This document shows, piece by piece, positions 4,013 to 64,000 of a stretch of 64,000 nucleotides of DNA. Numbering within the stretch: position 1 is the first letter of the stretch; each line of letters begins with the position of its first letter. The translations under genes and the position numbers were made by a program. Below the pieces are notes generated by a model. The model was not told where the DNA came from. It saw only the letters and a program-made list of their open reading frames with translations, and searched no databases. Source of the stretch: Patescibacteria group bacterium (GTDB lineage Bacteria; Patescibacteriota; Patescibacteriia; JAHJFT01); contig JAQTTB010000001.1 of NCBI GenBank assembly GCA_028710985.1, positions 19,280 to 83,279 of the forward strand. Direction: 5' to 3'.

Positions 4013-4732
4013 TTATTTTTTACTCTCCGGAGCCGCACCCCGCTTTGCCTCTTCCCGCCCCTCTTTCACCGCCTCGGCAACATACCGGGTCATGAGCTCA
4101 ATTGATTTAACCGCGTCATCATTTGCCGGTATGCAATAAGCAACGCCGGTTGGATCAATATTCGTGTCACAGAGCGCAACCAGTTTGACGCCGCGGTTAT
4201 CGGATTCGGCGCGCGCGGTTTTTTCGTATTTCAGATCAACCACGAAAATCGCATCCGGAATTTTATTGAGTTCCTGGATACCGCCGATTCTCTGGCGCAA
4301 TGTTTCAATCTCGCGCGCGAAAACCAATTGCTCCTTTTTTGTATATTTCTTAAGTTCGCCTTTTTCCTGGCGCTTCTGCAGATCACGGAACTTCCGGAGC
4401 AATATGAGAATCTCACTAAAATTCGTAAGCATTCCGCCGAGCCACCGCTCGGTAAGATACGGCGCCCCGCATTCAATGGCGTAGCGCTTCACGATATCCT
4501 TGGCCTGGCGCTTCGTGCCGAGAAATAGCACGACTCCGCCGCGCGCCACGGTTTGGCGCACGAAATCCAGAGCCTTCTCCAGGTATTTCTGCGTTTCCTC
4601 CAGATTGATGATGTGTACATTATTTCTCGCGCCGAAAATGTACGGTTCGGCTTTGGGATGCCATCGGCCGGTCTGGTGCCCAAAATGCACGCCGGCTTCA
4701 AGCATCTCCAATATTGTTGGTAGTTTTGGCAT
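4013..4732 (-). CDS. rpsB: 30S ribosomal protein S2
   Basis: 239-aa ORF: LLEAGVHFGHQTGRWHPKAEPYIFGARNNVHIINLEET..., plus a basic/acidic C-terminal tail. Confidence 0.95.
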   Translation of the reverse strand: MPKLPTILEMLEAGVHFGHQTGRWHPKAEPYIFGARNNVHIINLEETQKYLEKALDFVRQTVARGGVVLFLGTKRQAKDIVKRYAIECGAPYLTERWLGGMLTNFSEILILLRKFRDLQKRQEKGELKKYTKKEQLVFAREIETLRQRIGGIQELNKIPDAIFVVDLKYEKTARAESDNRGVKLVALCDTNIDPTGVAYCIPANDDAVKSIELMTRYVAEAVKEGREEAKRGAAPESKK

Positions 4733-4898: not shown

Positions 4899-4972
4899 TA
4901 GCTTGTAGGAAGTAGCTTGTAGCTTGTAGGACGCGACCTATTAAGATCCTACAAGCTACAAGCTACAAGCTA
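4899..4972 (+). repeat. hairpin built from tandem 7-nt AGCTTGT words in the leader of the 698-aa membrane-protein gene
   Basis: TAGCTTGTAGCTTGTAGGA (4913-4931) is the exact reverse complement of TCCTACAAGCTACAAGCTA (4947-4965), with a 15-nt loop. Extra word copies flank it (4899-4910, 4966-4972). It is preceded by an extended -10, TGTTAAAAT (4891-4899), and ends 2 nt before the ATG at 4975. Confidence 0.9.
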
Positions 4973-4974
4973 AT

Positions 4975-7071
4975 ATGCTCGTCACCCGCACAACCTATCT
5001 CATTACAATTGCCATCCTGATAGTACTGGAGGCCGTCTTCCAGCTATTGTGGCCCAGCCCGCTCTTCGGACTCCTGATATTTGCCGCCGGGCTCGGTCTG
5101 ATCGGGCTGGTTATCGGCGCGCGCCTCCTTCCGAACTGGCGCCGCGCCGAACAGGTGCTTTGGGGCGCAATGTTTGTTTTTTCAATGATTGCGATCGCGG
5201 TCGCGATTTTTTATTATTTCTGGTCCATGAATCCCTTGGCCCTCTCCCTCGCCTGGCTTCCGCCCGCGGTTGCCGGATTCTTTTCTCTGCCAACGCCGAT
5301 CATGATCAATGACGAAGAAAAGAAAAATTCTATTCTTGTAAAAATTCTTTTGGCCGCGCTTTTTATTATCATCACCGCCATCGTCCTCAAGACCGCCGAC
5401 CTGCTCTGGGATTCCGGCACGCTGGAAGCAATCCGCTCGCCATGGACCGTTGTTCCGAAAAACTTTTTTATTCTTTTTTATCTCGCCACTGCCGCCGCTC
5501 TTATCTTTCTCGCGAAATCCAAATCAACAAAATTCGCCTGGCTTACTGCCGGCGCTCTGACGTTCCTGTTTCTGGGCATCAATCTTTTTATTTACAAAAT
5601 CGGCTACGGCTTTGACCCGTTCATCCATCAGGCCACGGAAAAATACCTAGCCGAACACGGCACTATCACTCCAAAGCCGTTCTATTACATCGGCCAATAT
5701 TCATGGGTTGTGTTTTTAAATTACTTTACCCATCTCGGCATCAATCTGCTCGATAAGCTTCTCCTGCCCATCCTCGCAGCCGCCGCGCTGCCGGCCGCGG
5801 TCTATACCGGCCTGCGTCGGGGATTCGGTCTCGCGGAAAGCAAAAGCCGGCTCGCCGCGCTCCTCATCCTTCTCATTCCCCTCTCCTCAATGATCGCGAC
5901 CACGCCGCAGGGGCTCGCCAATCTTTTTACCCTGATAATCATTTTTCTTTCGCTCGCCCATCTCCGTTCCAAAACCCCGCCGCTCATACTTCTCGTTGTT
6001 CTTGCGGCCGCGACCGTGTTCATCCATCCGCTTTCCGGCATTCCGACCGCCATCTATCTCACCCTGATTGTAATAATTAAAATTAAAAAATCAAAAATCC
6101 GGATTCCGCTCGTTGCCGCGGCCGCGGGTTTAGGCGCCATTGCCCTACCCCTGCTTTTTATTTTGAATTCCCTGCTCTCCGGCACGGCGGTTGAAGCCAC
6201 TACCGCGATCCTCCAAAGTCCGGCCGTACTCTTTAGTAATCTCCAATTGCCGGCGTTTTATACCGCGAGCCACTTTTCAAGTATTTTGGATTTTATCTAC
6301 ATCTACGGATACAATCTCGCCTGGATTATTCCGCTCCTTGCCATACTTGCCATTATTTTTATCGCCCGCAAAAAAATTCCGTACTGGTGGCTCGCGCTCG
6401 TGATGTTTGCCATACTGCTGGTCAACTATTTTTTCTTACAAAATGCGGTTGAATTTTCTTTTCTTATTTCCTACGAGCGCGGCGCCTATGCCGAGCGCGT
6501 GCTTGCGCTCGCGCAATTTTTTCTATATCCGTTTTTCATTCTCGGCGTAATCGCCTGGGTTGGCCGGGCCTGGCGCGGACCGTGGGCCGTACGCGCGGTT
6601 ATTATTCTCTTTCTCGCCGCCTGCCTTAGCGCCTCCCTCTATCTCTCCTACCCGCGGCAAGACGCCCTGGAAATCTCAAAGGGCATTAATGTTTCAAAAA
6701 GCGATTTGGCCGCCGTGCAATGGGTTGAACGCGACGCACCGAATGATGAGTTCATCGCGCTCGCGAATCAAACTGTGGCCGCCGCCGCTTTGCATGAATT
6801 TGGATTTAAAAAATATTTTGGCGACAAATTCTACTATCCCATCCCGACCGGCGGCGAACTCTACCAGTATTATCTCAAAATGTCATATGAATCACCCTCG
6901 GCCGTAACCATGCGCCAGGCAATGGACTTGGTCGGAGTAAATTACGGATATTTTATCATCAACGATTATTGGTGGAATTCGGAAAAAATAATTGAAGATG
7001 CTAAACTCCAGGCCGGCTCGTGGCAGGAGATTGACGAAGGGAAAATTTATATTTTCAAATATAAAAAATAA
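4975..7071 (+). CDS. large polytopic membrane protein with C-terminal soluble domain (GT-C-like or polymerase-like; family not recognised)
   Basis: 698-aa ORF with more than 12 predicted hydrophobic helices, then a ~150-aa hydrophilic C-terminal domain (YPRQDALEISKGINVSKSDL...IYIFKYKK). No Shine-Dalgarno sequence is visible upstream. Confidence 0.6.
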   Translation: MLVTRTTYLITIAILIVLEAVFQLLWPSPLFGLLIFAAGLGLIGLVIGARLLPNWRRAEQVLWGAMFVFSMIAIAVAIFYYFWSMNPLALSLAWLPPAVAGFFSLPTPIMINDEEKKNSILVKILLAALFIIITAIVLKTADLLWDSGTLEAIRSPWTVVPKNFFILFYLATAAALIFLAKSKSTKFAWLTAGALTFLFLGINLFIYKIGYGFDPFIHQATEKYLAEHGTITPKPFYYIGQYSWVVFLNYFTHLGINLLDKLLLPILAAAALPAAVYTGLRRGFGLAESKSRLAALLILLIPLSSMIATTPQGLANLFTLIIIFLSLAHLRSKTPPLILLVVLAAATVFIHPLSGIPTAIYLTLIVIIKIKKSKIRIPLVAAAAGLGAIALPLLFILNSLLSGTAVEATTAILQSPAVLFSNLQLPAFYTASHFSSILDFIYIYGYNLAWIIPLLAILAIIFIARKKIPYWWLALVMFAILLVNYFFLQNAVEFSFLISYERGAYAERVLALAQFFLYPFFILGVIAWVGRAWRGPWAVRAVIILFLAACLSASLYLSYPRQDALEISKGINVSKSDLAAVQWVERDAPNDEFIALANQTVAAAALHEFGFKKYFGDKFYYPIPTGGELYQYYLKMSYESPSAVTMRQAMDLVGVNYGYFIINDYWWNSEKIIEDAKLQAGSWQEIDEGKIYIFKYKK

Positions 7072-7109
7072 AAAAGTACGAGTCGTCTATATGCAACCCG
7101 TACTTTTTT
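7070..7109. terminator. bidirectional terminator between convergent genes
   Basis: AAAAAGTACGAGT...ACCCGTACTTTTT forms a ~13-bp stem with one mismatch, an A-run on the 5' side and a T-run on the 3' side. It lies between the stop at 7069-7071 (+) and the stop at 7109-7111 (-). Confidence 0.6.
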
Positions 7110-8275
7110 TATTTTACCAACTCCAGCAATTTGCTGATATAATTTTCCAGTCCATATTCCGCCACCGTCTTCCGACAGGCCTCGCTCATGCCCGCAAGCC
7201 GCGCCGGATCCGCTATGAACGGCTTAATTTTCGCAAGCAGCTCGTCTTTCGCCCCCGGCGTAAAAGTCCACCCGTTCTCCCCTTGGCGCACGAGCTCCCC
7301 GGCTCCGCCAATGCGCGATACAAGCACCGGCACTCCGGCAGCCAGGCTCTCGGAGATTACGGCCGGCGAATTCTCGTAGCAAAATGACGGCACGATGGCG
7401 AGATCCGCCCCGGAAAAAAGTCGTCCAATCTCTTCACGCGGCCGCGGACCTAAAATATTTATTCGCGCATCGCCCGCGGCGATTTTTTTTATTTCTCCAA
7501 GATCCGAACCACCACCCGCAACCGCAAGATGCCAATCGCCGGGCAGATCCTTAAGGGTTTCAACCAGCCACCGCGCGCCCTTGTGTTTCTCAATCTGGCC
7601 GAGATACAGCAGATTAAGCCCGGGGTGCAATATTTTTTCCGCCATCCCTGCCAGGGGCGCGGGATTCGGCAAAACCTCAACGCGCGAGTCTTTAAAAAAT
7701 CCCTTATTTTTATAAAATTCCGCGAGCCAGCGCGACGGCGAAACAATGAGCCGCGGCGAACCAAAAAGCCGGCGCGAGTACGCTTCCCAGATCTTCCGCA
7801 CGAACGAACGCTCCGCCTTTGCTTCTTCCCCCCAGAGCATGAGTCCGTTCGGCGCAGAAAGCTGAATGTCGTGTGCCACGTGCACCCAGCGCTCGCTCTC
7901 TGCCTTGAGCGCCAAAACTCCGAGCATGCCCAGGCCCCTAAGATTATGGCTTACGATAAGATCCGGCACTTCTTCCCTAATCGCGCGCCGCATCATGCCC
8001 AAACCCGCAAGGCTCATGGCGTCCAGCGCGTGCCAGATCGCGCGCGCCGCAAAACCGTGCTCTCCGATATTTTTATACCAAAAAATATTAAGCGGAAAAA
8101 AGCGGCAAATTTTAATGCCATCCGCCTTGTCGCAGGCAAAACCGCGCGGACCGCTCGAGAGCACCGCCACCTCGTGCCCGGCATCGCGAAACCCGCGCGC
8201 CTGGAGTTCAGCCACCCGCTCGGCTCCGCCCCGCGCCTCGGGCGGATACAAATTTGAGACAATCAGAATCTTCAT
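7109..8275 (-). CDS. glycosyltransferase, GT-B fold, family 4-like
   Basis: 388-aa ORF with N-terminus MKILIVSNLYPPEARGGAERV and the C-terminal E-x7-E region CYENSPAVISESLAAGVPVLVSRIGGAGELV. Confidence 0.85.
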   Translation of the reverse strand: MKILIVSNLYPPEARGGAERVAELQARGFRDAGHEVAVLSSGPRGFACDKADGIKICRFFPLNIFWYKNIGEHGFAARAIWHALDAMSLAGLGMMRRAIREEVPDLIVSHNLRGLGMLGVLALKAESERWVHVAHDIQLSAPNGLMLWGEEAKAERSFVRKIWEAYSRRLFGSPRLIVSPSRWLAEFYKNKGFFKDSRVEVLPNPAPLAGMAEKILHPGLNLLYLGQIEKHKGARWLVETLKDLPGDWHLAVAGGGSDLGEIKKIAAGDARINILGPRPREEIGRLFSGADLAIVPSFCYENSPAVISESLAAGVPVLVSRIGGAGELVRQGENGWTFTPGAKDELLAKIKPFIADPARLAGMSEACRKTVAEYGLENYISKLLELVK

Positions 8276-9420
8276 AATTTAAAATATTGCCCACGCATCT
8301 TCCCGACGATTACCGGCCAGGTAAATTCCGCCTCAATCCTCTCGCGCGCCCGCTCCCCCATTTCTTTTACACTCTCCGGATCCGCGGCCATATCGTTAAT
8401 CGCCTTGGCAAGGCCGTTAACATCCTTCGGCGCCACCAGCGCGCCGGTTCTGCCGTCCTGCACCACATAGCGCACGCCCGGAAGACTGCTCGCGATCACC
8501 GGTTTTCCGCAGGCGCCGGCTTCGAGCGCCACGAGCCCGTAGGCTTCGGATTTATCAACCGAAGGAAATGTGAGCGCGTCGGCCAAATTATAATATTGCG
8601 GCAATTCGCGGTCATCCACTCCCCCGGCAAAAAATACGCGCTCCCCCAGGCCGGCGGAGGCGACGATCTGCTCAAACTCCGGCCGGCGGTCGCCGTCTCC
8701 CACGACAAGCAATTTAATCTTTTTATCTTTGACTGTCTTTACTGCCTCAATCAATTTATCCAGTCCCTTGAAATAATGCGCGCGGTCCAATCCGCCGACA
8801 AAGAGCAGGACAAAATCGCTGGCTAGAATATTATATTTTACGGCGAGCGTCTCCAGCCGGTGGCCGGGCGAAAAAAATTTCTCGTCCACCCCGAGATTTG
8901 AAACCACGAATTTTTCCGGATCCTGAGCCACGAATTTCGCCAGATCCCCGGCCTGGGCGTAATCAAGCGTGGATACAAAAACCTTATCCGCGGCCGCGAG
9001 AATCCGCCGCAAAAATAACCGCCGGTATAATCTGAAAAACAACCCTATTGCTCCCCTTCCTACCGTATCCATATGATACGTAACAACCAGTTTGTTCTTT
9101 TGTTCTTTTGTTCTTTTGTTCTTTTTCCAAAAAAGAGCCGCTTCCGCTCCGCCAAAAAACGGATAGTGCAAATGAACGACATCAAATCCGTCCAGCATGT
9201 CCGCAAGATGCGGCACCCAGGCGGCATTGCCGTAGCGGATGACCGGCTTAAGATAAATTACGTTAAAATCAAACTTCAGCCGCTCGGCTCCCCGGGGCGT
9301 CGGGCAAAACACCGTCACCTCGTCGCCGAGACGCGCGAGCTCGCGCGCGTGCGCGTATGCCACGTTGCCCATACCGCCGCGATAAGGAGGAAATGTCGAT
9401 GTGATTATCGCTATCCTCAT
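8272..9420 (-). CDS. glycosyltransferase, GT4-like, carrying an internal 8-nt x4 tandem repeat
   Basis: 382-aa ORF: MRIAIITSTFPPYRGGMGNVAY...KSEAYGLVALEAGACGKPVIASSLPGV. 4-nt overlap with the downstream GT4. Confidence 0.85.
   Translation of the reverse strand: MRIAIITSTFPPYRGGMGNVAYAHARELARLGDEVTVFCPTPRGAERLKFDFNVIYLKPVIRYGNAAWVPHLADMLDGFDVVHLHYPFFGGAEAALFWKKNKRTKEQKNKLVVTYHMDTVGRGAIGLFFRLYRRLFLRRILAAADKVFVSTLDYAQAGDLAKFVAQDPEKFVVSNLGVDEKFFSPGHRLETLAVKYNILASDFVLLFVGGLDRAHYFKGLDKLIEAVKTVKDKKIKLLVVGDGDRRPEFEQIVASAGLGERVFFAGGVDDRELPQYYNLADALTFPSVDKSEAYGLVALEAGACGKPVIASSLPGVRYVVQDGRTGALVAPKDVNGLAKAINDMAADPESVKEMGERARERIEAEFTWPVIVGKMRGQYFKL
9091..9122 (-). repeat. perfect octanucleotide tandem repeat (TTTGTTCT)x4; sense strand (AGAACAAA)x4
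   Basis: Four exact contiguous copies read directly (9091-98, 9099-106, 9107-114, 9115-122). They encode codons ~100-110 (KKNKRTKEQKNK) of the GT4 gene. The unit length is not a multiple of 3. Confidence 0.95.
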
Positions 9421-9450
9421 AAATTAATCAGCTTCGATGCCTTGTTTGGT

Positions 9451-9593
9451 TTAGTCAAAAGTTAAAAGTCAAAAGTCCAAAGTCAAGTCTAAAATTTTTT
9501 AGTCCAATCTCTCCAGCTGAATGTATCTATAACTTTTTGACTTTTAACTCAACTTTTAACTTTAGACTTTAGACTTTTAACTACAAAACAAAC
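9451..9593. repeat. intergenic inverted block of 7-nt periodic words (AAAGTYN x5 versus CTTTWRA x5-6)
   Basis: The left block, 9451-9494, carries GTTAAAAGTCAAAA (9461-9474) and AAGTCTAAA (9485-9493). The right block carries their complements: TTTTGACTTTTAAC (9535-9548, 14/14), GACTTTTAAC again (9572-9581) and TTTAGACTT twice (9561-9569, 9568-9576). It fills the 173-nt gap between two co-directional GT genes. Confidence 0.75.
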
Positions 9594-10712
9594 CTACCAA
9601 AATATAATTAGTCGTGCAATTAAAAAATAAAGATTAAACAACGGATTAGCGATTTTAAGCGCCCAATTATTAATTTCCTGATACTCAATCTTCCCTGTGA
9701 AATGACGAAGCACTTCTTTATCCCCGATACTTCTCGCGCGCGCGATTCTCGCGTGCTTGACGAAGAGATACGGCCAGTGCCACGGCGCGATCATCCAAAG
9801 ATATGCCTTAAGCTTCTCGCGCCACCAGCCGGACTTGATGGAAAAAATAAACTGCCCGAGCTCCATCGCGAGAAAGGCCGGCAGAAACACGAGCTGGGTC
9901 AGAAATTTATAATCGCAAAAATATAAAATAAAACGATTTCGCTCCATCCAGTAATATTTTGAAATACTCCGGCTGAATTCATATTCGTGATACACAACCG
10001 ACCGCGGCGCGAGCACGTTCACGAACCCGCCAAGCCGGAGCCGCCAGCCCAGATCCAGGTCTTCGTGATACGCAAAAAGTTTTTCATCAAAAAGCCCGGC
10101 ATCGCGCAAGGCGCCGATCTTGTATAAAACCCCGGCTCCGGAGCCGTAAGCAATTTCCGGAAGCCCGATAAAATCGCGTTCGCTCCGCGCCGCGCGCGAA
10201 CCGCCGCAAAATCCGAATCCCAGATAATGAATCATGTTGCCCGACGAATTAATGAGTCCGCGCTCGGGCCAGAGCGCGAGCAGAGACTGCACCGAACCGA
10301 TTTTCTGATTTGATTCCGCCGCATCGACGGCATGGCGCAAAAAATCCGGCTCAACCCGCGTATCGTAATTTATTAAATAAACATAATCAAAACCCTGCAC
10401 CTGCCTGCCGGTAGGCAGGGCCATTGCATACTCAATCGCGCGGTTGTTTCCGCCGGCAAAGCCGAGATTCGTGTTCATGGGCATAAAGTGAATCTTCGGC
10501 AGCCCCTGGGGCGGCGACTGCATTATCTCCAGAATGCGCTCGCGCGACCCGTCGGTTGACGCATTGTCAACAATAACAAGCTCAACCGCCTCCCGCGGAT
10601 AATCCAAGAGCGCGAGCGATTCAATCCAGGCATCTAAAAAACGCCGCGCCTTCCAGAGCACGGCGATAATTGCCACTCGTTTTACATCCTGATTATTCAT
10701 GCTTTTTTGCAT
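9594..10712 (-). CDS. glycosyltransferase family 2 (rhamnosyltransferase-like)
   Basis: VAIIAVLWKARRFLDAWIESL...VIVDNASTDGS, then DYVYLINYDTRV and YHEDLDLGWRLRLGG. The ORF-track start at 10838 is an extension overlapping the upstream gene. ATG at 10712 (MQKSMNN) or 10700 is more likely. Confidence 0.8.
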   Translation of the reverse strand: MQKSMNNQDVKRVAIIAVLWKARRFLDAWIESLALLDYPREAVELVIVDNASTDGSRERILEIMQSPPQGLPKIHFMPMNTNLGFAGGNNRAIEYAMALPTGRQVQGFDYVYLINYDTRVEPDFLRHAVDAAESNQKIGSVQSLLALWPERGLINSSGNMIHYLGFGFCGGSRAARSERDFIGLPEIAYGSGAGVLYKIGALRDAGLFDEKLFAYHEDLDLGWRLRLGGFVNVLAPRSVVYHEYEFSRSISKYYWMERNRFILYFCDYKFLTQLVFLPAFLAMELGQFIFSIKSGWWREKLKAYLWMIAPWHWPYLFVKHARIARARSIGDKEVLRHFTGKIEYQEINNWALKIANPLFNLYFLIARLIIFW

Positions 10713-11731: not shown

Positions 11732-11960
11732 GTCATTCCCGCGAAGGCGGGAATCCAGAAACAGTATACCTTGCGGATTCGATTTATAAACTGTCACACA
11801 AATCACTCCAAAGCGGATTGCAGTCTTCAATGAATTTAATCTTTTAGACCCTTTCCACTTATTGGAGGATGCAAATATAGAACTGCCGATAATCGGACAT
11901 AGCATAAATAAGTAGCCCCGAGATTAATTGGTTGTGGATTCCCGCCTTCGCGGGAATGAC
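11732..11960. repeat. MITE-like unit bounded by 26-bp perfect terminal inverted repeats, each a REP-type hairpin
   Basis: GTCATTCCCGCGAAGGCGGGAATCCA (11732-11757) is the exact reverse complement of TGGATTCCCGCCTTCGCGGGAATGAC (11935-11960). The arms are 177 bp apart. Each arm is itself a palindrome (ATTCCCGC-GAAG-GCGGGAAT). It occupies the gap between two co-directional genes. Confidence 0.7.
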
Positions 11961-12978: not shown

Positions 12979-13082
12979 AATTTTTGTATTTATTTTATCA
13001 AGTTTATATGTATATTTTAGACGAAATCACGCTTTTTGGCAAGGAGCGAGAATAATAATAAAACGAGCCGATTAAAGCCCGC

Positions 13083-13114
13083 TTTGTTCCATTGTTCTAT
13101 TGTTTTATTGTTCT
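13083..13114 (-). repeat. 8-nt periodic word array (sense AGAACAAT AAAACAAT AGAACAAT GGAACAAA) across the GtrA-like stop codon
   Basis: The plus strand reads TTTGTTCC ATTGTTCT ATTGTTTT ATTGTTCT. This is the same word family as 9091-9122 and 53967-54074. The stop codon is at 13097-13099. Confidence 0.8.
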
Positions 13115-13552
13115 CTTAAAAATGAATATTTTCTGAAAAAAGAAATTAATAAAATAGAGAATGGCATACACCACAAATTTTGCCGCCACGTCCCAGATTC
13201 CGAGGTAATGCACCGTGACAAACAGCAGGCCTTCGCCGATCAAAAAAACCACAAGCGCGTTAATCCAATAAACCGCATACTGCCTGACCACGCGCTTATC
13301 CGTATCGCCGAAAGTATAAGTCTTGTTAAACCAATAACCCACGATCGCGCCGAGCGTCATGCTCACAAAATTCGCCAAAAGATAATGTATGCCGAAAATT
13401 TTTGTGAGCAATAGATACGTCCCAAAATCAACGCCGGTCGCCCCGGTCCCCACGATCGTGAACCGCCACAGCTGTTTGATGGTTTGAAAAAGATTTGATT
13501 TTTGAGATATATTTTTGAGATTTGAGATTTGAGATTTGAGATTATCTTCCAT
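13097..13552 (-). CDS. GtrA-like family membrane protein (putative lipid-linked sugar translocase)
   Basis: 151-aa ORF with 4 TM helices: RFTIVGTGATGVDFGTYLLL...LANFVSMTLGAIVGYWFNKTYTF. Confidence 0.75.
   Translation of the reverse strand: MEDNLKSQISNLKNISQKSNLFQTIKQLWRFTIVGTGATGVDFGTYLLLTKIFGIHYLLANFVSMTLGAIVGYWFNKTYTFGDTDKRVVRQYAVYWINALVVFLIGEGLLFVTVHYLGIWDVAAKFVVYAILYFINFFFQKIFIFKRTIKQ
13514..13541 (-). repeat. perfect heptanucleotide tandem repeat (TTTGAGA)x4 in codons 4-13 of the GtrA-like gene
   Basis: Exact copies at 13514-20, 13521-27, 13528-34 and 13535-41, plus an isolated fifth copy at 13501-07. The array also lies in the divergent promoter region of the priming transferase gene. 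Confidence 0.95.
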
Positions 13553-14993: not shown

Positions 14994-15007
14994 AAAAATA
15001 ACAAAAA

Positions 15008-15037
15008 ATAGGTGTTTGCAGACACCTATTTTTTTAC
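15008..15037. terminator. bidirectional rho-independent terminator
   Basis: ATAGGTGT-TTGCAG-ACACCTAT, an 8-bp stem, is preceded by AAAAAA and followed by TTTTTTT. It sits between convergent stops at 14991-14993 and 15039-15041. Confidence 0.7.
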
Positions 15038-41337: not shown

Positions 41338-41396
41338 GAACGAATTTTTGGCTATATCAAGAGAAAAAACAAAAAAAAGAAATAGAGAAAAAGACT

Positions 41397-41789
41397 ATGG
41401 GCGAAACTATCAAATCATTTGAGGACTTGCTCGTTTGGCAAGAGTCGCACAAGCTCATGATTGACGCTTATGGGTTCGCGGACCGCTATTTGCCGCCGGA
41501 AGAAAAATACAATCGCATTTCTCAAATAAAACGCTGTTCAAGCTCAATCCCTGCCAATATCGCCGAAGGTTATGGTCGATTTCATTTCTTGGAAAATATC
41601 CAATATTGCCGGCAAGCCCGAGGTTCACTTGATGAACTTAAAAACCACATCATCGCCGCCCGAGACCTAAAGCAGGCTCCTCCGGAAGAATGTGCCAAAT
41701 TTATCCAAAAATGCAATTATGTACGGGCTATCCTAAATAACTACATTAACAAAACTCATGATCTCTATATTGAAAATAAGCAAAAATAG
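41397..41789 (+). CDS. four-helix-bundle protein (23S rRNA intervening-sequence protein family)
   Basis: 130-aa ORF: FEDLLVWQESHKLMIDAYGF...RISQIKRCSSSIPANIAEGYGRFHFLENIQYCRQARGSLDELKNHI. Confidence 0.85.
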   Translation: MGETIKSFEDLLVWQESHKLMIDAYGFADRYLPPEEKYNRISQIKRCSSSIPANIAEGYGRFHFLENIQYCRQARGSLDELKNHIIAARDLKQAPPEECAKFIQKCNYVRAILNNYINKTHDLYIENKQK

Positions 41790-41854
41790 TATATCACCCG
41801 TTTGACCACATTTTTCTTCTTTTCTCTTTTTCCTTATTTCTCAATACAACCCTC

Positions 41855-43028: not shown

Positions 43029-43263
43029 TAAAATCCCTCTCTGCCTCTCCCTTCCTGCCTGCCGGCAGGCAGGTTGCATACTTTTGGTTACAAAAGTATG
43101 TCCTGCTGAAAGCAAACAAGAGTGGTGCTAGAAAAGATAATTATTGCCCAGACAGGTGGCAGGCAAGAACTTAAAAATCCCAATATTAAAACAACTTGTA
43201 CGATAATATATAATAGGATTCCCCCGGTACATTGAACCTGGATTCCCGCCTTCGCGGGAATGA
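43029..43263 (+). repeat. mosaic palindromic-unit repeat, copy A
   Basis: In order: AAAATCCCTCTCTG..CTCTCCC; the 20-nt perfect palindrome CCTGCCTGCCGGCAGGCAGG (43053-43072); the hairpin CATACTTTTG-GTTA-CAAAAGTATG; a ~130-nt body; and the REP hairpin TGGATTCCCGCCTTCGCGGGAATGAC (43238-43263). 43051-43263 aligns with 56985-57198 at roughly 85-90% identity by eye. Confidence 0.85.
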
Positions 43264-53546: not shown

Positions 53547-53638
53547 CTATATTGACGATAAGATGATACGAATGTTACACAATCCGCCTTCATTTGTAAA
53601 GTCTTTTAGTCTCAAATTCGGTTAAATCACCCGTTTTC

Positions 53639-53667
53639 TTGACAAACTTTCAAGCTGCACATATAAT
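53639..53667 (+). promoter_or_regulatory. consensus sigma70 promoter of the small HTH gene
   Basis: TTGACA (53639-53644), exactly 17 nt, TATAAT (53662-53667). It is immediately followed by the palindrome AAGTCTA-N8-TAGACTT (53668-53689), a possible operator. Confidence 0.7.
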
Positions 53668-53702
53668 AAGTCTAAACTAGCCTAGACTTTTAATATAAGC
53701 CC

Positions 53703-53999
53703 ATGTCTTCATCCATTCGCTTATCCGTATCCGAAGCCGCCCGGCTTTTTGGCATTAGTGAAAAAACCCTGCGCCGCGCCATCATTAATAAGGAAATCAA
53801 CTATATCGTGGTTGCCGGCCGGTACAAGCTAAATTTTGAAAGCCTGGTCAAGTGGTCCCAGCAAAAAACCACGGTGCGCCGCAAATCCGAAAAATACGGC
53901 ATCGACCAATTTGTGGATAAATGGCGCCTCTCCGCCACCCTCTACTCCCCCAACCCACCCGCCACGGAACAAGAGAACAATTCAACAATACAACAATAG
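53703..53999 (+). CDS. small helix-turn-helix DNA-binding protein (excisionase/MerR-type HTH)
   Basis: 98 aa: LSVSEAARLFGISEKTLRRAIINKEINYIVVAGRYKLNFESLVKW. The C-terminal 11 codons are encoded by the SAACAA word array. Confidence 0.7.
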   Translation: MSSSIRLSVSEAARLFGISEKTLRRAIINKEINYIVVAGRYKLNFESLVKWSQQKTTVRRKSEKYGIDQFVDKWRLSATLYSPNPPATEQENNSTIQQ

Positions 54000-54074
54000 A
54001 ACGACCTATAAAAAAACAAGCGTTTTACCTATGCTTGTTTTTTTGTTGTATTGTTGAATTGTTGCGTTGTCCGC
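53967..54074. repeat. two facing 8-nt periodic word arrays around a bidirectional terminator hairpin
   Basis: 53967-54006 reads GAACAAGA GAACAATT CAACAATA CAACAATA GAACGACC. 54043-54074 reads TTGTTGTA TTGTTGAA TTGTTGCG TTGTCCGC. 53976-53996 and 54043-54063 are exact 21-nt reverse complements. The inner terminator is AAAAAAACAAGC-GTTTTACCTAT-GCTTGTTTTTTT (about 54010-54044). Confidence 0.9.
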
Positions 54075-55229
54075 TTACGCCGTTTCCAGCGCGAACTTGC
54101 ATTCCGGCTTCAGATCGAAATAAAGTCCGGAAATGTCGCGGCAGATGTCTTTCCAGTTATATTTTTCATTCACGAAAATCTTCGCGCGCGCGCCCAGCTC
54201 TTTCAGATTTTCGGTTTGCGGCAAATACGTCTCAAGCTTACGGATTAAATCTTCAACATTCTTATTTTCAAAACTGATTCCCGCTTCACTCACGACTTCC
54301 ATATTTTCCGGGATATCGCTCGCGATCACCGGCAAACCCCAGCCCATCGCTTCAAGCAAAGCGATCGGCAAACCTTCGGATTCGGACGGATGAACCAGCG
54401 CGTAAGCGTTGCCAAAAAGCGCATTCAACGGCTCGCCGTTCTGAAAACCGGTAAATACAATAGATTCGTCGCCGGCCGCCATCTCATGAAGTTCTTTCAC
54501 GTAATCATCTGTAAAAGCCGAGTCGCCGACGATCACGAGTTTTTTATTGCCAATTATCTCCGGATTACGGAATTTTAGAGTTTTATAAGCATCAATCAAA
54601 TAATGGGCGCCCTTATGACGCACCAGCCGCGAAACCATAATAATATACTCTTTAGGCTCAAGACCAAACTTTTTAAGATACTCGGTGTCGGCCGGATTCT
54701 GCATCCTAACGCCGTTCGGAATATATTGAGTCATGGAATCATAAGCTTCGGAGCAATACTGATTCAAAGTACGCGAAACCGTAATGGTGCGGTCCGCGAA
54801 ACGGCACGCTGACCATTCGCCAAGGCGAAGCATAGCGCGGGCAATAAATCCCCATTTTTGATGCTTGCGATCAATGCAGTGAAAAGTCACCACCACTTTG
54901 GTGCTGGGTCGCAAAATTTTCGGAAGCCACGAGAGTAGCGCCGGCCCGACGCCGTGAATGTGGATAATCTCAAAACCGCTCCGGCAGGCATGAATAATGC
55001 TCAAGAAAGTATGGCTAATGGCATCAAGATGCTTGGTCTTAAGGCTCGGGGTATAAATAAGATGCACCCCGTTAATCTGTTCCTCGTGGCCCTTTGAGTA
55101 CCACGGGCGACAGTATACAAAAACCTCCAGGCCGAGTTCAGCCAGGCCGCGCGAAAGCTCATCCACGTGGCGTTCAATACCACCGAAGATAGCCGGGATG
55201 CCTTTTTGTCCGATCATTGCTATTCTCAT
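54075..55229 (-). CDS. glycosyltransferase, GT4-like
   Basis: 384-aa ORF: MRIAMIGQKGIPAIFGGIERHV...ESEGLPIALLEAMGWGLPVIASDIPENMEVV. Confidence 0.85.
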   Translation of the reverse strand: MRIAMIGQKGIPAIFGGIERHVDELSRGLAELGLEVFVYCRPWYSKGHEEQINGVHLIYTPSLKTKHLDAISHTFLSIIHACRSGFEIIHIHGVGPALLSWLPKILRPSTKVVVTFHCIDRKHQKWGFIARAMLRLGEWSACRFADRTITVSRTLNQYCSEAYDSMTQYIPNGVRMQNPADTEYLKKFGLEPKEYIIMVSRLVRHKGAHYLIDAYKTLKFRNPEIIGNKKLVIVGDSAFTDDYVKELHEMAAGDESIVFTGFQNGEPLNALFGNAYALVHPSESEGLPIALLEAMGWGLPVIASDIPENMEVVSEAGISFENKNVEDLIRKLETYLPQTENLKELGARAKIFVNEKYNWKDICRDISGLYFDLKPECKFALETA

Positions 55230-56984: not shown

Positions 56985-57384
56985 TTCCTGCCTGCCGGCA
57001 GGCAGGTTGCATACTTTTGGTTACAAAAGTATGTCCCGCTGAAAGCGAACAAGAGTGATGCTAGAAAACAATAATCAATACCCAGACAAGCGGCAGGCTG
57101 TGGCTAGAAAATCCCAATATTAAAACAACTTGCACGAAAATATTTAATAGGATTCCCCCGGTACATTGAACCTGGATCCCCGCCTTCGCGGGGATGACGA
57201 AGAGAGCACTTTGCCACTTACCGTCATTCCCGCGAAAGCGGGAATCCAGAAACAAAGCCCCTCCAAAATCCCTCTCTGACACGTCGCTCGCGAGCGACGT
57301 GTCTCTGTCTCCCCCTTCCTGCCTGCCGGCAGGCAGGTCAGCCACCCCGAAACTTTTTGGTTACTTTTTGGTTACAAAAAGTAA
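56985..57384 (+). repeat. mosaic palindromic-unit repeat, copy B (expanded)
   Basis: 56985-57198 parallels copy A, with the same palindrome, hairpin, body and REP. It is followed by an inverted second REP (57223-57248), then the AAAATCCCTCTCTG...CTCCC unit interrupted by the palindrome ACACGTCGCTCGCGAGCGACGTGT. A second CCTGCCTGCCGGCAGGCAGG follows (57317-57336), then the hairpin TTACTTTTT-GGTTAC-AAAAAGTAA. Confidence 0.85.
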
Positions 57385-63783: not shown

Positions 63784-63803
63784 GGGTCGCATATATGCGA
63801 CCC
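63784..63803. repeat. 20-nt perfect palindrome GGGTCGCATATATGCGACCC between genes
   Basis: The sequence is self-complementary as read. It lies between the partial upstream gene's stop (63826) and the GT4 start (63773) and may act as a terminator or processing hairpin. Confidence 0.6.
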
Positions 63804-63825
63804 CTTCCTTATTTCGTTTTTTTCG

Positions 63826-64000
63826 TTATTTCGTTTTTTCCTCTTTTCTTTTTTTCTTCTCCAGATGCGGCCGCTCTTCGTGACGAAAAACTTTGGTCGC
63901 CGCGAGCGCCAAAGCGAGCGGAATCCATAACTTTGGGCTGTAATAATTTGTATTAAATAATTGATAAGTCATACTTCCCGCGGCCATCACGAGGCACGAA
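63826..64000 (-). CDS. C-terminal fragment of a membrane protein (N-terminal part lies outside the window)
   Basis: Own translation of the minus strand: ...SCLVMAAGSMTYQLFNTNYYSPKLWIPLALALAATKVFRHEERPHLEKKKRKEEKTK*, with the stop at 63826-63828. Not in the ORF track because it runs off the edge. Confidence 0.35.
   Translation of the reverse strand, partial: SCLVMAAGSMTYQLFNTNYYSPKLWIPLALALAATKVFRHEERPHLEKKKRKEEKTK

Follow-up and report, generated by a model that had tools for sequence, protein, structure and literature searches.

What do tandem arrays of short AACAA-containing words do at the ends of genes in the Patescibacteria? The question was raised by a 64-kb stretch (hereafter the window) of a 744,538-bp contig from a metagenome-assembled genome (MAG) of the Patescibacteria, also called the candidate phyla radiation (CPR). 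In this window, the original prediction described four loci with octamer arrays in sense orientation at gene 3′ ends and proposed a single RNA-level element. Here, both strands are examined (128 kb) and we focus on the two arrays at 54 kb, at the junction of a helix-turn-helix (HTH) gene and a convergent glycosyltransferase (GT4) gene. These arrays are the two arms of one palindrome of ~100 nt. Inverted AACAAT-type octamer arrays build its outer stem of 21 bp, and its core is a predicted bidirectional Rho-independent terminator common to both genes. Array-armed hairpins of this kind, in which inverted tandem 7–8-nt arrays form the stem, are common in this genome. On balance, we lean towards the view that the 54-kb feature, with its terminator core and array-built stem, is an array-armed hairpin devoid of an open reading frame (ORF) which would have originated by slippage and would be cut by RNase III or hold off exonucleases.

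The components of the palindrome are the following.

53967..54006, + strand: left octamer array, GAACAAGA GAACAATT CAACAATA CAACAATA GAACGACC

54008..54046, both strands: inner hairpin A7CAAGC, 11-nt loop, GCTTGT7, with 16 pairs in the terminator scan

54035..54074, − strand: right octamer array, read on that strand as GCGGACAA CGCAACAA TTCAACAA TACAACAA AAAAACAA

53969..54070, both strands: the whole palindrome, a 21-nt exact outer stem plus the inner hairpin

The gene calls around this and the other arrays were verified (HTH_17, 53703..53999, +; GT4, 54075..55229, −; GtrA, 13097..13552, −; a second GT4, 8272..9420, −). The left array encodes the non-conserved tail of the HTH_17 protein (EQENNSTIQQ) together with its stop codon (TAG, 53997-53999), and the right array begins directly after the stop codon of the GT4 gene (54075-54077, − strand). 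The two stop codons are 75 nt apart and the hairpin lies between the convergent genes, just past both. From left to right, the elements are ordered as left array (HTH tail), 13 nt, AAAAAAACAAGC, 11-nt loop, GCTTGTTTTTTT, right array and GT4 stop codon. The 21-nt exact complement described in the original prediction is real (53976-53996 with 54043-54063) and does bracket a terminator-like hairpin. Over 34 nt the arms are complementary at 85%, with a period of 8 and 3.8–4.5 copies per arm. On either strand the region folds as a single stem-loop of ~100 nt (dG −47.9 and −48.8 kcal/mol, z −8.7 and −7.4), and none of 200 shuffled sequences was as stable (0/200). An array-armed hairpin is defined here by inverted arms which pair over at least 20 bp and which consist of tandem 7–8-nt units; both properties are found at 54 kb.

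The inner hairpin has A-tract/U-tract symmetry, so that each strand carries a stem-loop followed by a U-tract, and it is located between convergent genes as bidirectional terminators are. Its A6-7/stem/T6-7 style is shared with two other hairpins between convergent genes of the window (7070-7109 and 15003-15034). Known bidirectional Rho-independent terminators likewise serve both strands between convergent stop codons with one A-tract/U-tract stem-loop. The 54-kb terminator differs in being wrapped in an additional 21-bp stem of tandem octamers and in its A/U-rich inner stem. No Rfam family, those of tRNA and rRNA included, reached the gathering score in the whole 64-kb window or in four related loci. 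When the threshold was relaxed to E≤5 on 53600-54400, no family was found either and only generic long-hairpin models (miRNA precursors) appeared below threshold.

How far do the arrays exceed what A-rich DNA would yield by chance? The expression ([GCA]AACAANN)n, applied to both strands, returns exactly four arrays, all with n≥4, and zero with n=2 or 3 (53967-53998 on the + strand; 54033-64, 13082-13113 and 9090-9121 on the − strand). Against 0.00 expected from shuffles that preserve dinucleotides, the three-unit pattern AACAANNNAACAANNNAACAA is matched 8 times. For the two-unit pattern 12 matches stand against 0.24 expected, and 12/12 are inside the four AACAA arrays. Tandem Repeats Finder (TRF) assigns period 8 to all four. 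As head-to-tail copies of a short unit above chance, the arrays qualify in this respect as long simple-sequence repeats (SSRs).

The arrays had thus been placed and read correctly from the outset, and chance A-rich composition, which had been named as one possible refutation, falls far short of the counts. The inference drawn from orientation fares less well. Both 54-kb arms read 'sense' because the palindrome is symmetric and its flanking genes converge. Since these two arrays are one inverted repeat, the finding rests on three independent loci rather than four. A sense array at a gene 3′ end holds true for GtrA, the sole case in which symmetry does not impose it, and does not hold for 9091-9125, which occupies codons ~99-110 of a GT4 gene of 382 codons. 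With two of four orientations forced by symmetry and one array deep in a coding region, consistent orientation and 3′-end position make a weak case for a single RNA element. As a whole, the initial observation was largely right and its reading as a sense-oriented 3′-end motif is only partly supported.

Furthermore, the SAACAA word is not a phenomenon apart. TRF and our own scan detect other period-7/8 arrays of unrelated units in the window. Under a strict criterion only periods 7 and 8 occur, with none at 5, 6 or 9–12. At least 10 arrays are present, and 7 of ten belong to inverted pairs. Those outside the AACAA loci include:

4899..4972, both strands: heptamer-armed hairpin (TAGCTTG)n / (CTACAAG)n with a 20-nt perfect stem, dG −42.1, z −6.7

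9442..9600, both strands: heptamer-armed hairpin (AGTCAAA)n / (TAACTTT)n with arrays at 9453-9582, dG −51.6, z −5.6, between the GT2 stop and the GT4 start

63805..63860, − strand: purine-rich array of period 8/16 in − sense, directly 5′ of the hairpin GGGTCGCATATATGCGACCC (63784-63803)

The same habit is seen in an independent sample of 104 kb of Patescibacteria loci, fetched via a GT4 protein and not picked for repeats, which holds 11 heptamer and 3 octamer arrays of at least 3 copies and almost none at other periods. When the window and these loci are taken together, 11/28 arrays have an inverted partner (≥72% complementarity, ≤600 nt), against 0.5% of 560 random segments. These counts bear on a first alternative, namely that the arrays are neutral by-products: slippage debris in A-rich terminator flanks and unconstrained loops, with no function of their own. 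The dominance of periods 7–8 is as this explanation would have it, being also a trait of the 'long SSR' class which is ascribed to polymerase slippage (Mrazek 2007, in the summary given by PMC4679880). Inverted pairing of ~40% of the arrays against 0.5% of the controls is not expected from debris, nor are perfect complementary arms of 20–35 nt. We consider this alternative rather unlikely.

The same architecture recurs in another setting, the stems of intervening-sequence (IVS) elements. The window contains one IVS-like cassette:

41359..41842, + strand: purine array 41359-41394 (AAGAGAAA), PF05635 gene 41397-41789, pyrimidine array 41811-41842

PF05635 is the 23S rRNA intervening-sequence protein (IVP), a four-helix bundle, and in this cassette its ORF lies in the loop: the purine and pyrimidine arrays pair together in both the minimum free energy and the centroid folds. 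At 54 kb, the loop is the 39-nt terminator hairpin and holds no PF05635 ORF. ORF-less IVSs are known in rRNA.

Beyond the window, IVP genes were found in a species-representative genome collection scanned for AACAA arrays (described below), with their identity confirmed by Pfam. Among the matches listed, arm-to-arm gaps of ~416–435 nt correspond to IVP genes. In L055 (1805-2280), perfect 35-nt inverted AACAAAAG/AACAAAAC arrays surround an IVP gene, and in L134 (4480-5010) and L028 (148-650) IVP genes similarly lie between inverted AACAA-type arrays. Two further IVP genes (L082, 1880-2460; L034, 100-700) lie >1 kb away from the AACAA array through which their loci were retrieved, and each stands between inverted heptamer arrays whose sequence is unrelated. 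An unbiased sample consisted of 10 IVP genes from plasmids picked by tblastn alone (L144-L153). Inverted heptamer arrays are present at both ends in 8/10 of them (Pseudanabaena, Anabaena sp. 90, Nostoc punctiforme, Geminocystis, Aulosira, Picosynechococcus, Stanieria and Azospirillum lipoferum), and the remaining 2 are partial (Calothrix, Nostoc 7120). The Azospirillum lipoferum case (plasmid AZO_p2, L149) is a genuine IVS in a 23S rRNA gene, with stems of GAGGACR heptamers. The architecture is thus found in PF05635-bearing elements both within 23S rRNA and between protein genes. As a separate observation, 3/10 of the plasmid cassettes lie between adjacent cas genes (L144 Pseudanabaena, L146 Anabaena sp. 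90 and L152 Picosynechococcus), with the insertion point at cas6|cas4 twice and at cmr2|cmr3 once.

Experiments in Coxiella, and earlier in Salmonella and Leptospira, established that IVSs with an S23p ORF have terminal inverted repeats which form a ~28-bp stem, cut by RNase III at mid-stem (PMC4990558). The 54-kb hairpin shares with these S23p/IVP-bearing 23S rRNA elements the terminal inverted repeats and a stem in the range of 20–30 bp closing a loop (PMC4990558). It differs in being ORF-less and in its location in an mRNA 3′ region instead of rRNA. No paper that we found states that tandem heptamers or octamers make up IVS stems or IVP flanks. A diversity-generating retroelement (DGR) with template and variable repeats was also considered, given the AAC/AAT-rich sequence and the nearby Avd-like IVP. 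It was rejected on account of the period of 8 and because the window contains neither a second ~100-nt repeat nor a reverse transcriptase.

The IVP association admits a broader and more tentative reading, which we judge possible as a whole though well short of an even chance. In this joint proposal, inverted 7–8-nt arrays would be the cis-component of a widespread IVP (PF05635)-associated system. IVP genes would ride in the loops of array-armed hairpins inserted in rRNA, in operons and even in cas operons, and RNase III would free the cassettes from the host transcript. ORF-less array hairpins, including the 54-kb palindrome, would be non-autonomous or decayed copies. The arrays would be made, bound or maintained by the IVP protein, with AACAAT as one preferred word with a constrained core.

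How widespread is the AACAA word itself? The genome collection was scanned for (AACAANNN)3AACAA, which returned at least 120 loci; the core AACAA is imposed by this pattern, and the ORF calls around the loci are crude. The figures in this and the next paragraph hold among the matches listed. Judged by record title, Bacteroidota account for about half of them, Patescibacteria for 13 and Chloroflexota for ~8, with Proteobacteria and others making up the remainder; the proportions should not be read quantitatively. Most units have T at position 6, which is left free by the pattern. In the 75 imperfect arrays, variation affects position 6 in 22, position 7 in 47 and position 8 in 59. Most arrays are intergenic, and for many of them the next start codon is at most 30 nt away. 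Where the neighbouring genes are co-directional, 37 arrays are sense and 18 antisense. The strand bias called for by a 3′-end element therefore amounts to only ~2:1, and a position shortly before a start codon, not at a 3′ end, is frequent.

An inverted array within 150 nt accompanies 8/16 of the Patescibacteria arrays versus 5/59 of those of Bacteroidota. Inverted pairs are exemplified by L022, L054, L058, L067, L081, L102, L133 (two, between r-protein genes and secY) and L135. In ~19 clear short-loop pairs, the non-ascertained arm keeps the core at 92% (358/390) and the spacers at 44% (52/118); the 54-kb palindrome of the window, L135 and L055 depart from this in having perfect arms. Neutral divergence with one-arm ascertainment would predict a smaller excess of core over spacer conservation, and this excess is the main point favouring a sequence-specific constraint. 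Neutral debris would lead one to expect neither this excess nor a regular association with IVP cargo. Two side observations concern particular loci. In the Patescibacteria MAG L133 (1500-2170), the two array-armed hairpins lie between genes, upstream of L15 and of SecY, and each is followed by the same AACAATATAATTCTATG start context, which has no Shine-Dalgarno-like sequence. Some Bacteroidales arrays (L059, L074) have the unit GTAACAAG, the same word as the conserved GUAACAAGGUAAC near the 16S rRNA 3′ end, a likeness which may be a coincidence and is taken as such here.

A constrained core is what a single-strand binding platform would show. In this alternative, named first in the original prediction, some protein would read AACAA(U) words spaced 8 nt apart on RNA and would thereby act on 3′-end stability or termination, or on translation initiation in other genomes. 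Core conservation with free spacers, within arrays and between arms, is the pattern expected of such a reader. The core is common to the three independent loci of the 64 kb, and AACAA(T) arrays recur in Patescibacteria, Bacteroidota and Chloroflexota. The sense bias (37 vs 18) and the many arrays ≤30 nt before a start codon resemble the TAACTGA repeats. However, no AACAA array of the window adjoins a start codon, symmetry dictates two of its four orientations and one array is translated. Many unrelated units (TAGCTTG, AGTCAAA, GGTGACA, CAGGAGT and others) make up the identical hairpin architecture, and a separate reader for every one of them is unlikely in a genome of ~0.75 Mb. The analysis turned up no candidate protein, and the scan, having imposed AACAA, cannot show this core to be commoner than other units. 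We hold the platform to be doubtful, though with some appeal. Ribbon-helix-helix proteins recognize arrays of comparable length, such as the 8-bp metboxes of MetJ and the 7-bp heptads of omega. Operator or centromere arrays of this type are unlikely at a convergent-gene site in a genome with many unrelated units.

The TAACTGA heptamers are intergenic direct repeats of Beggiatoaceae, Cyanobacteria and Bacteroidetes (MacGregor 2015, PMC4679880). They are mostly forward and have no known binder, and a binder of the S1, Csp or CsrA type was proposed (PMC4679880). Likewise, AACAAT is a fixed short word in direct repeats which is common to distant phyla, and many of its arrays in other genomes, among the matches listed, end just before start codons. 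The leader position of the TAACTGA repeats, a few nt from the start codon, is occupied by AACAAT arrays in L073, L079, L081, L120 and L133 and by no AACAA array of the window. In contrast to the arrays described here, TAACTGA sets are almost never inverted (1/170), and their period is 7 instead of 8.

Comparison with relatives indicates how long such arrays last. The JGI contig Ga0309773_1000286 is syntenic with the window in both regions, and its HTH and GT4 proteins are 82% and 59% identical to those of the window. At the HTH/GT4 junction of this first relative (L002) there are no AACAA arrays, and a 228-nt spacer carries its own A/T-flanked terminator. This spacer (4283-4510), which replaces the AACAA palindrome, is G+C-rich and hairpin-rich and has no Rfam match. 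In a second relative (78%, L141/L142), degenerate A-rich period-8 flanks surround yet another terminator at the same junction. The 9.5-kb hairpin is absent from the first relative (L004), where the GT2-GT4 spacer measures 12 nt. The Logan contig L001 matches the window exactly at 54 kb, and relatives differ in array unit and in array presence, not in copy number. From this comparison it follows that the arrays turn over fast, occupy unconstrained protein sequence and can hold position while the unit changes. Fast turnover between relatives is also what neutral by-products would display, and the arrays overlap just non-conserved protein tails and loops, which is equally in line with that explanation.

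The arrays of the two other loci and of the GtrA start are listed here.

13083..13114, − strand: solo octamer array AGAACAAT AAAACAAT AGAACAAT GGAACAAA, spanning the GtrA stop codon (TAA, 13097-13099)

13060..13085, − strand: terminator-like hairpin AAAGCGGGC-loop-GGCTCGTTTT, then ATTATTATT, directly 3′ of the 13.1-kb array

13491..13543, − strand: solo heptamer array (CAAATCT)n in gene sense, within the first ~20 codons of GtrA (codons ~4-20)

9091..9125, − strand: perfect (AAGAACAA)x4.4 array inside GT4 8272..9420

At 13.1 kb, the array supplies the GtrA stop codon (CAATAA) and runs into the hairpin at 13085-13060, and its last unit pairs weakly with the U-rich tail of that hairpin. At the orthologous position in L004 (4687-4714), an A-rich period-8 array (AAAACAGG)x3.5 is followed by (AATTAACC)x3.4. 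The 13.1-kb array of the window may act as an A-rich lead-in to the terminator at the GtrA 3′ end. At the other end of the gene, the heptamer array 13491-13543 encodes NLKSQISNLKNISQKS and is absent from the L004 orthologue. The protein collection contains neighbouring proteins of the same MAG but has no entry identical to GtrA.

The 9.1-kb array is translated as the Lys-rich loop KKNKRTKEQKNK. Across the family this loop is rich in Lys and differs in length, and in two orthologues of ~57–59% identity it is encoded by degenerate period-8 arrays, (AAGAAATA)x3.9 in L004 and (GGCAAAAA)x4.8 in L003. Distant metagenome relatives of the GT4 protein (26–46% identity) have no array in the loop, and the loop array is thus confined to one clade. 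It is consistent with an in-frame expansion which would be tolerated in a variable surface loop. Both this array and the 13.1-kb one stand alone, and they would be of the slippage-prone kind proposed for 54 kb.

Could the arrays instead be phase-variation switches? Slippage of 8- or 7-nt units, which are not multiples of 3, would then turn glycan genes on and off, namely GT4 at 9.1 kb and GtrA at 13.5 kb. A perfect array of 4.4 octamer copies inside GT4, a heptamer array in the first ~20 codons of GtrA and the clustering of arrays in a glycosylation gene cluster would suit such switches. Like phase-variable SSR loci in glycosyltransferase genes of Haemophilus and Neisseria, a non-3 unit lies inside a surface-glycan gene, and the orthologous loop keeps an array with a changed unit, as in concerted evolution. 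Only 9091-9125 and 13491-13543 have such a unit in 5′ coding sequence. Slippage cannot switch a gene at the 54-kb and 13.1-kb arrays, which are situated at stop codons or past them. Copy numbers are low (~4, unlike the phase-variable loci), most arrays are non-coding and the orthologous arrays are degenerate (73–78% matches), which makes them poor substrates for slippage. Length variants were not observed; beside the identity of L001 at 54 kb, the GT4 protein is identical on 3 contigs, an exact-protein look-up which misses frameshifted alleles. Phase variation is, in our opinion, improbable.

The turnover at the HTH/GT4 junction also invites the idea of a remnant of a miniature inverted-repeat transposable element (MITE), of a repetitive extragenic palindrome (REP) or of another non-autonomous mobile element inserted between the convergent genes. 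The palindrome is present here and absent at the same junction in L002. An arm identical to the 21-mer of the window occurs at a non-orthologous site in a Candidatus Uhrbacteria MAG (L135), and foldback-type elements have ends made of tandem repeats. Orthology of the L135 hairpin was rejected, as it follows a hypothetical membrane protein in a SecE-NusG-L11-L1 cluster and not an HTH gene, and its inner hairpin is different. Its arm identity involves just two spacers (TC and AC), which are among the commonest in the sample of matches listed. Neither the 54-kb nor the 9.5-kb hairpin has a target-site duplication at its ends, there is no second copy in the 64-kb window, each hairpin uses a different unit and no transposase lies nearby. 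The combination that marks MITEs and REPs (several near-identical copies, terminal inverted repeats and target-site duplication) was not found for this palindrome within the 64-kb window. A mobile origin of this kind seems to us highly improbable.

Further palindromes and a compositional block were recorded in the window. The REP-like palindrome GTCATTCCCGCGAAGGCGGGAATCC has 4 matches versus 0.04 expected (11732-11760, 11935-11960, 43243-43260 and 57174-57250), and in an ORF that looks spurious (57061..57345, −) it is translated as ...VIPAKAGIQ. This region is bracketed by the palindrome CCTGCCTGCCGGCAGGCAGG, present in two copies (56987 and 57318). From 16000 to 42000, the G+C content is 0.35–0.42 versus 0.46–0.56 elsewhere and the genes are nearly all on the − strand; this block may be a horizontally acquired island.

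We now return to the array-armed terminator hairpin as the preferred explanation of the 54-kb feature. The arrays would arise and turn over by replication slippage and would then be homogenised within each arm. As judged from structure, transcripts from either gene would end at the inner hairpin and its U-tract, so that immediately 5′ of the terminator an A-rich array would remain unstructured. A read-through RNA would copy the second array too, and the stem would be extended by 21 bp. By analogy with IVS stems, this duplex may be a substrate of RNase III or a block to exonucleases. If the long duplex is cut or blocks exonucleases in this way, antisense read-through would be stopped and the convergent genes would be insulated from each other. 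Two of the roles offered by the original prediction fit this scheme. A termination or stability aid agrees with 54-kb arrays which lengthen a bidirectional terminator-like hairpin and with a 13.1-kb array directly 5′ of another. A slippage product agrees with arrays which belong to a genome-wide habit of 7–8-nt simple-sequence arrays.

Several points weigh against this explanation. Termination and RNase III cleavage at 54 kb are both deduced rather than observed. The inner stem has just 3 G-C pairs, which is weak by E. coli standards, and no U-tract follows the outer stem. Among the matches listed, conservation of the AACAA(T) core far exceeds that of the spacers, inside arrays as well as between arms, and slippage together with selection for pairing does not by itself predict this difference. 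The link between the ORF-less hairpin and the IVP cassettes is one of shared architecture, not of homology. Finally, the evidence from this genome covers 64 kb of its 744 kb.

In cyanobacteria, short tandemly repeated repetitive (STRR) heptamers are said to have been reported by Mazel in 1990. Long SSRs of 5–11 nt, among which heptamers dominate, are usually ascribed to slippage (Mrazek 2007 as summarised in PMC4679880). As far as that summary goes, the present arrays resemble them in being short, intergenic, mostly heptameric and patchy across phyla. They differ from the long SSRs and STRR heptamers in that ~40% form hairpins as inverted pairs and in the prominence of AACAA(T)-core octamers. 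The earlier remark that the motif was not recognised as a described one thus stands with regard to Rfam, which has no family for it, and not with regard to its kind, since long simple-sequence repeats of 5–11 nt and intergenic heptamers such as TAACTGA are on record (PMC4679880). Each ingredient, that is bidirectional terminators, long SSRs and IVS hairpins, is known singly. In the literature on IVP genes flanked by tandem arrays, on octanucleotide repeats and on CPR hairpins we found no direct description. Nor did we find accounts of hairpins with tandem-repeat arms being common between genes in Patescibacteria, of an octamer with an AACAA(T) core occurring across phyla, or of IVP genes, in rRNA or elsewhere, between inverted 7–8-mer arrays.

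For annotation, the arrays carry a warning, as C-terminal tails and stop codons of Patescibacteria proteins are often supplied by them. If the proposed explanation is true, it would join three puzzles: the 7–8-nt arrays of scattered phyla, the long palindromes of tiny CPR genomes and the IVP/S23p proteins, for which no function has come to light since the 1990s. Tandem heptamers or octamers in inverted arrangement would then be a sequence signature for IVS-like elements outside rRNA and would predict RNase III processing sites between genes of uncultivated bacteria. Furthermore, the function of the PF05635 protein would become testable, for example as array binding.

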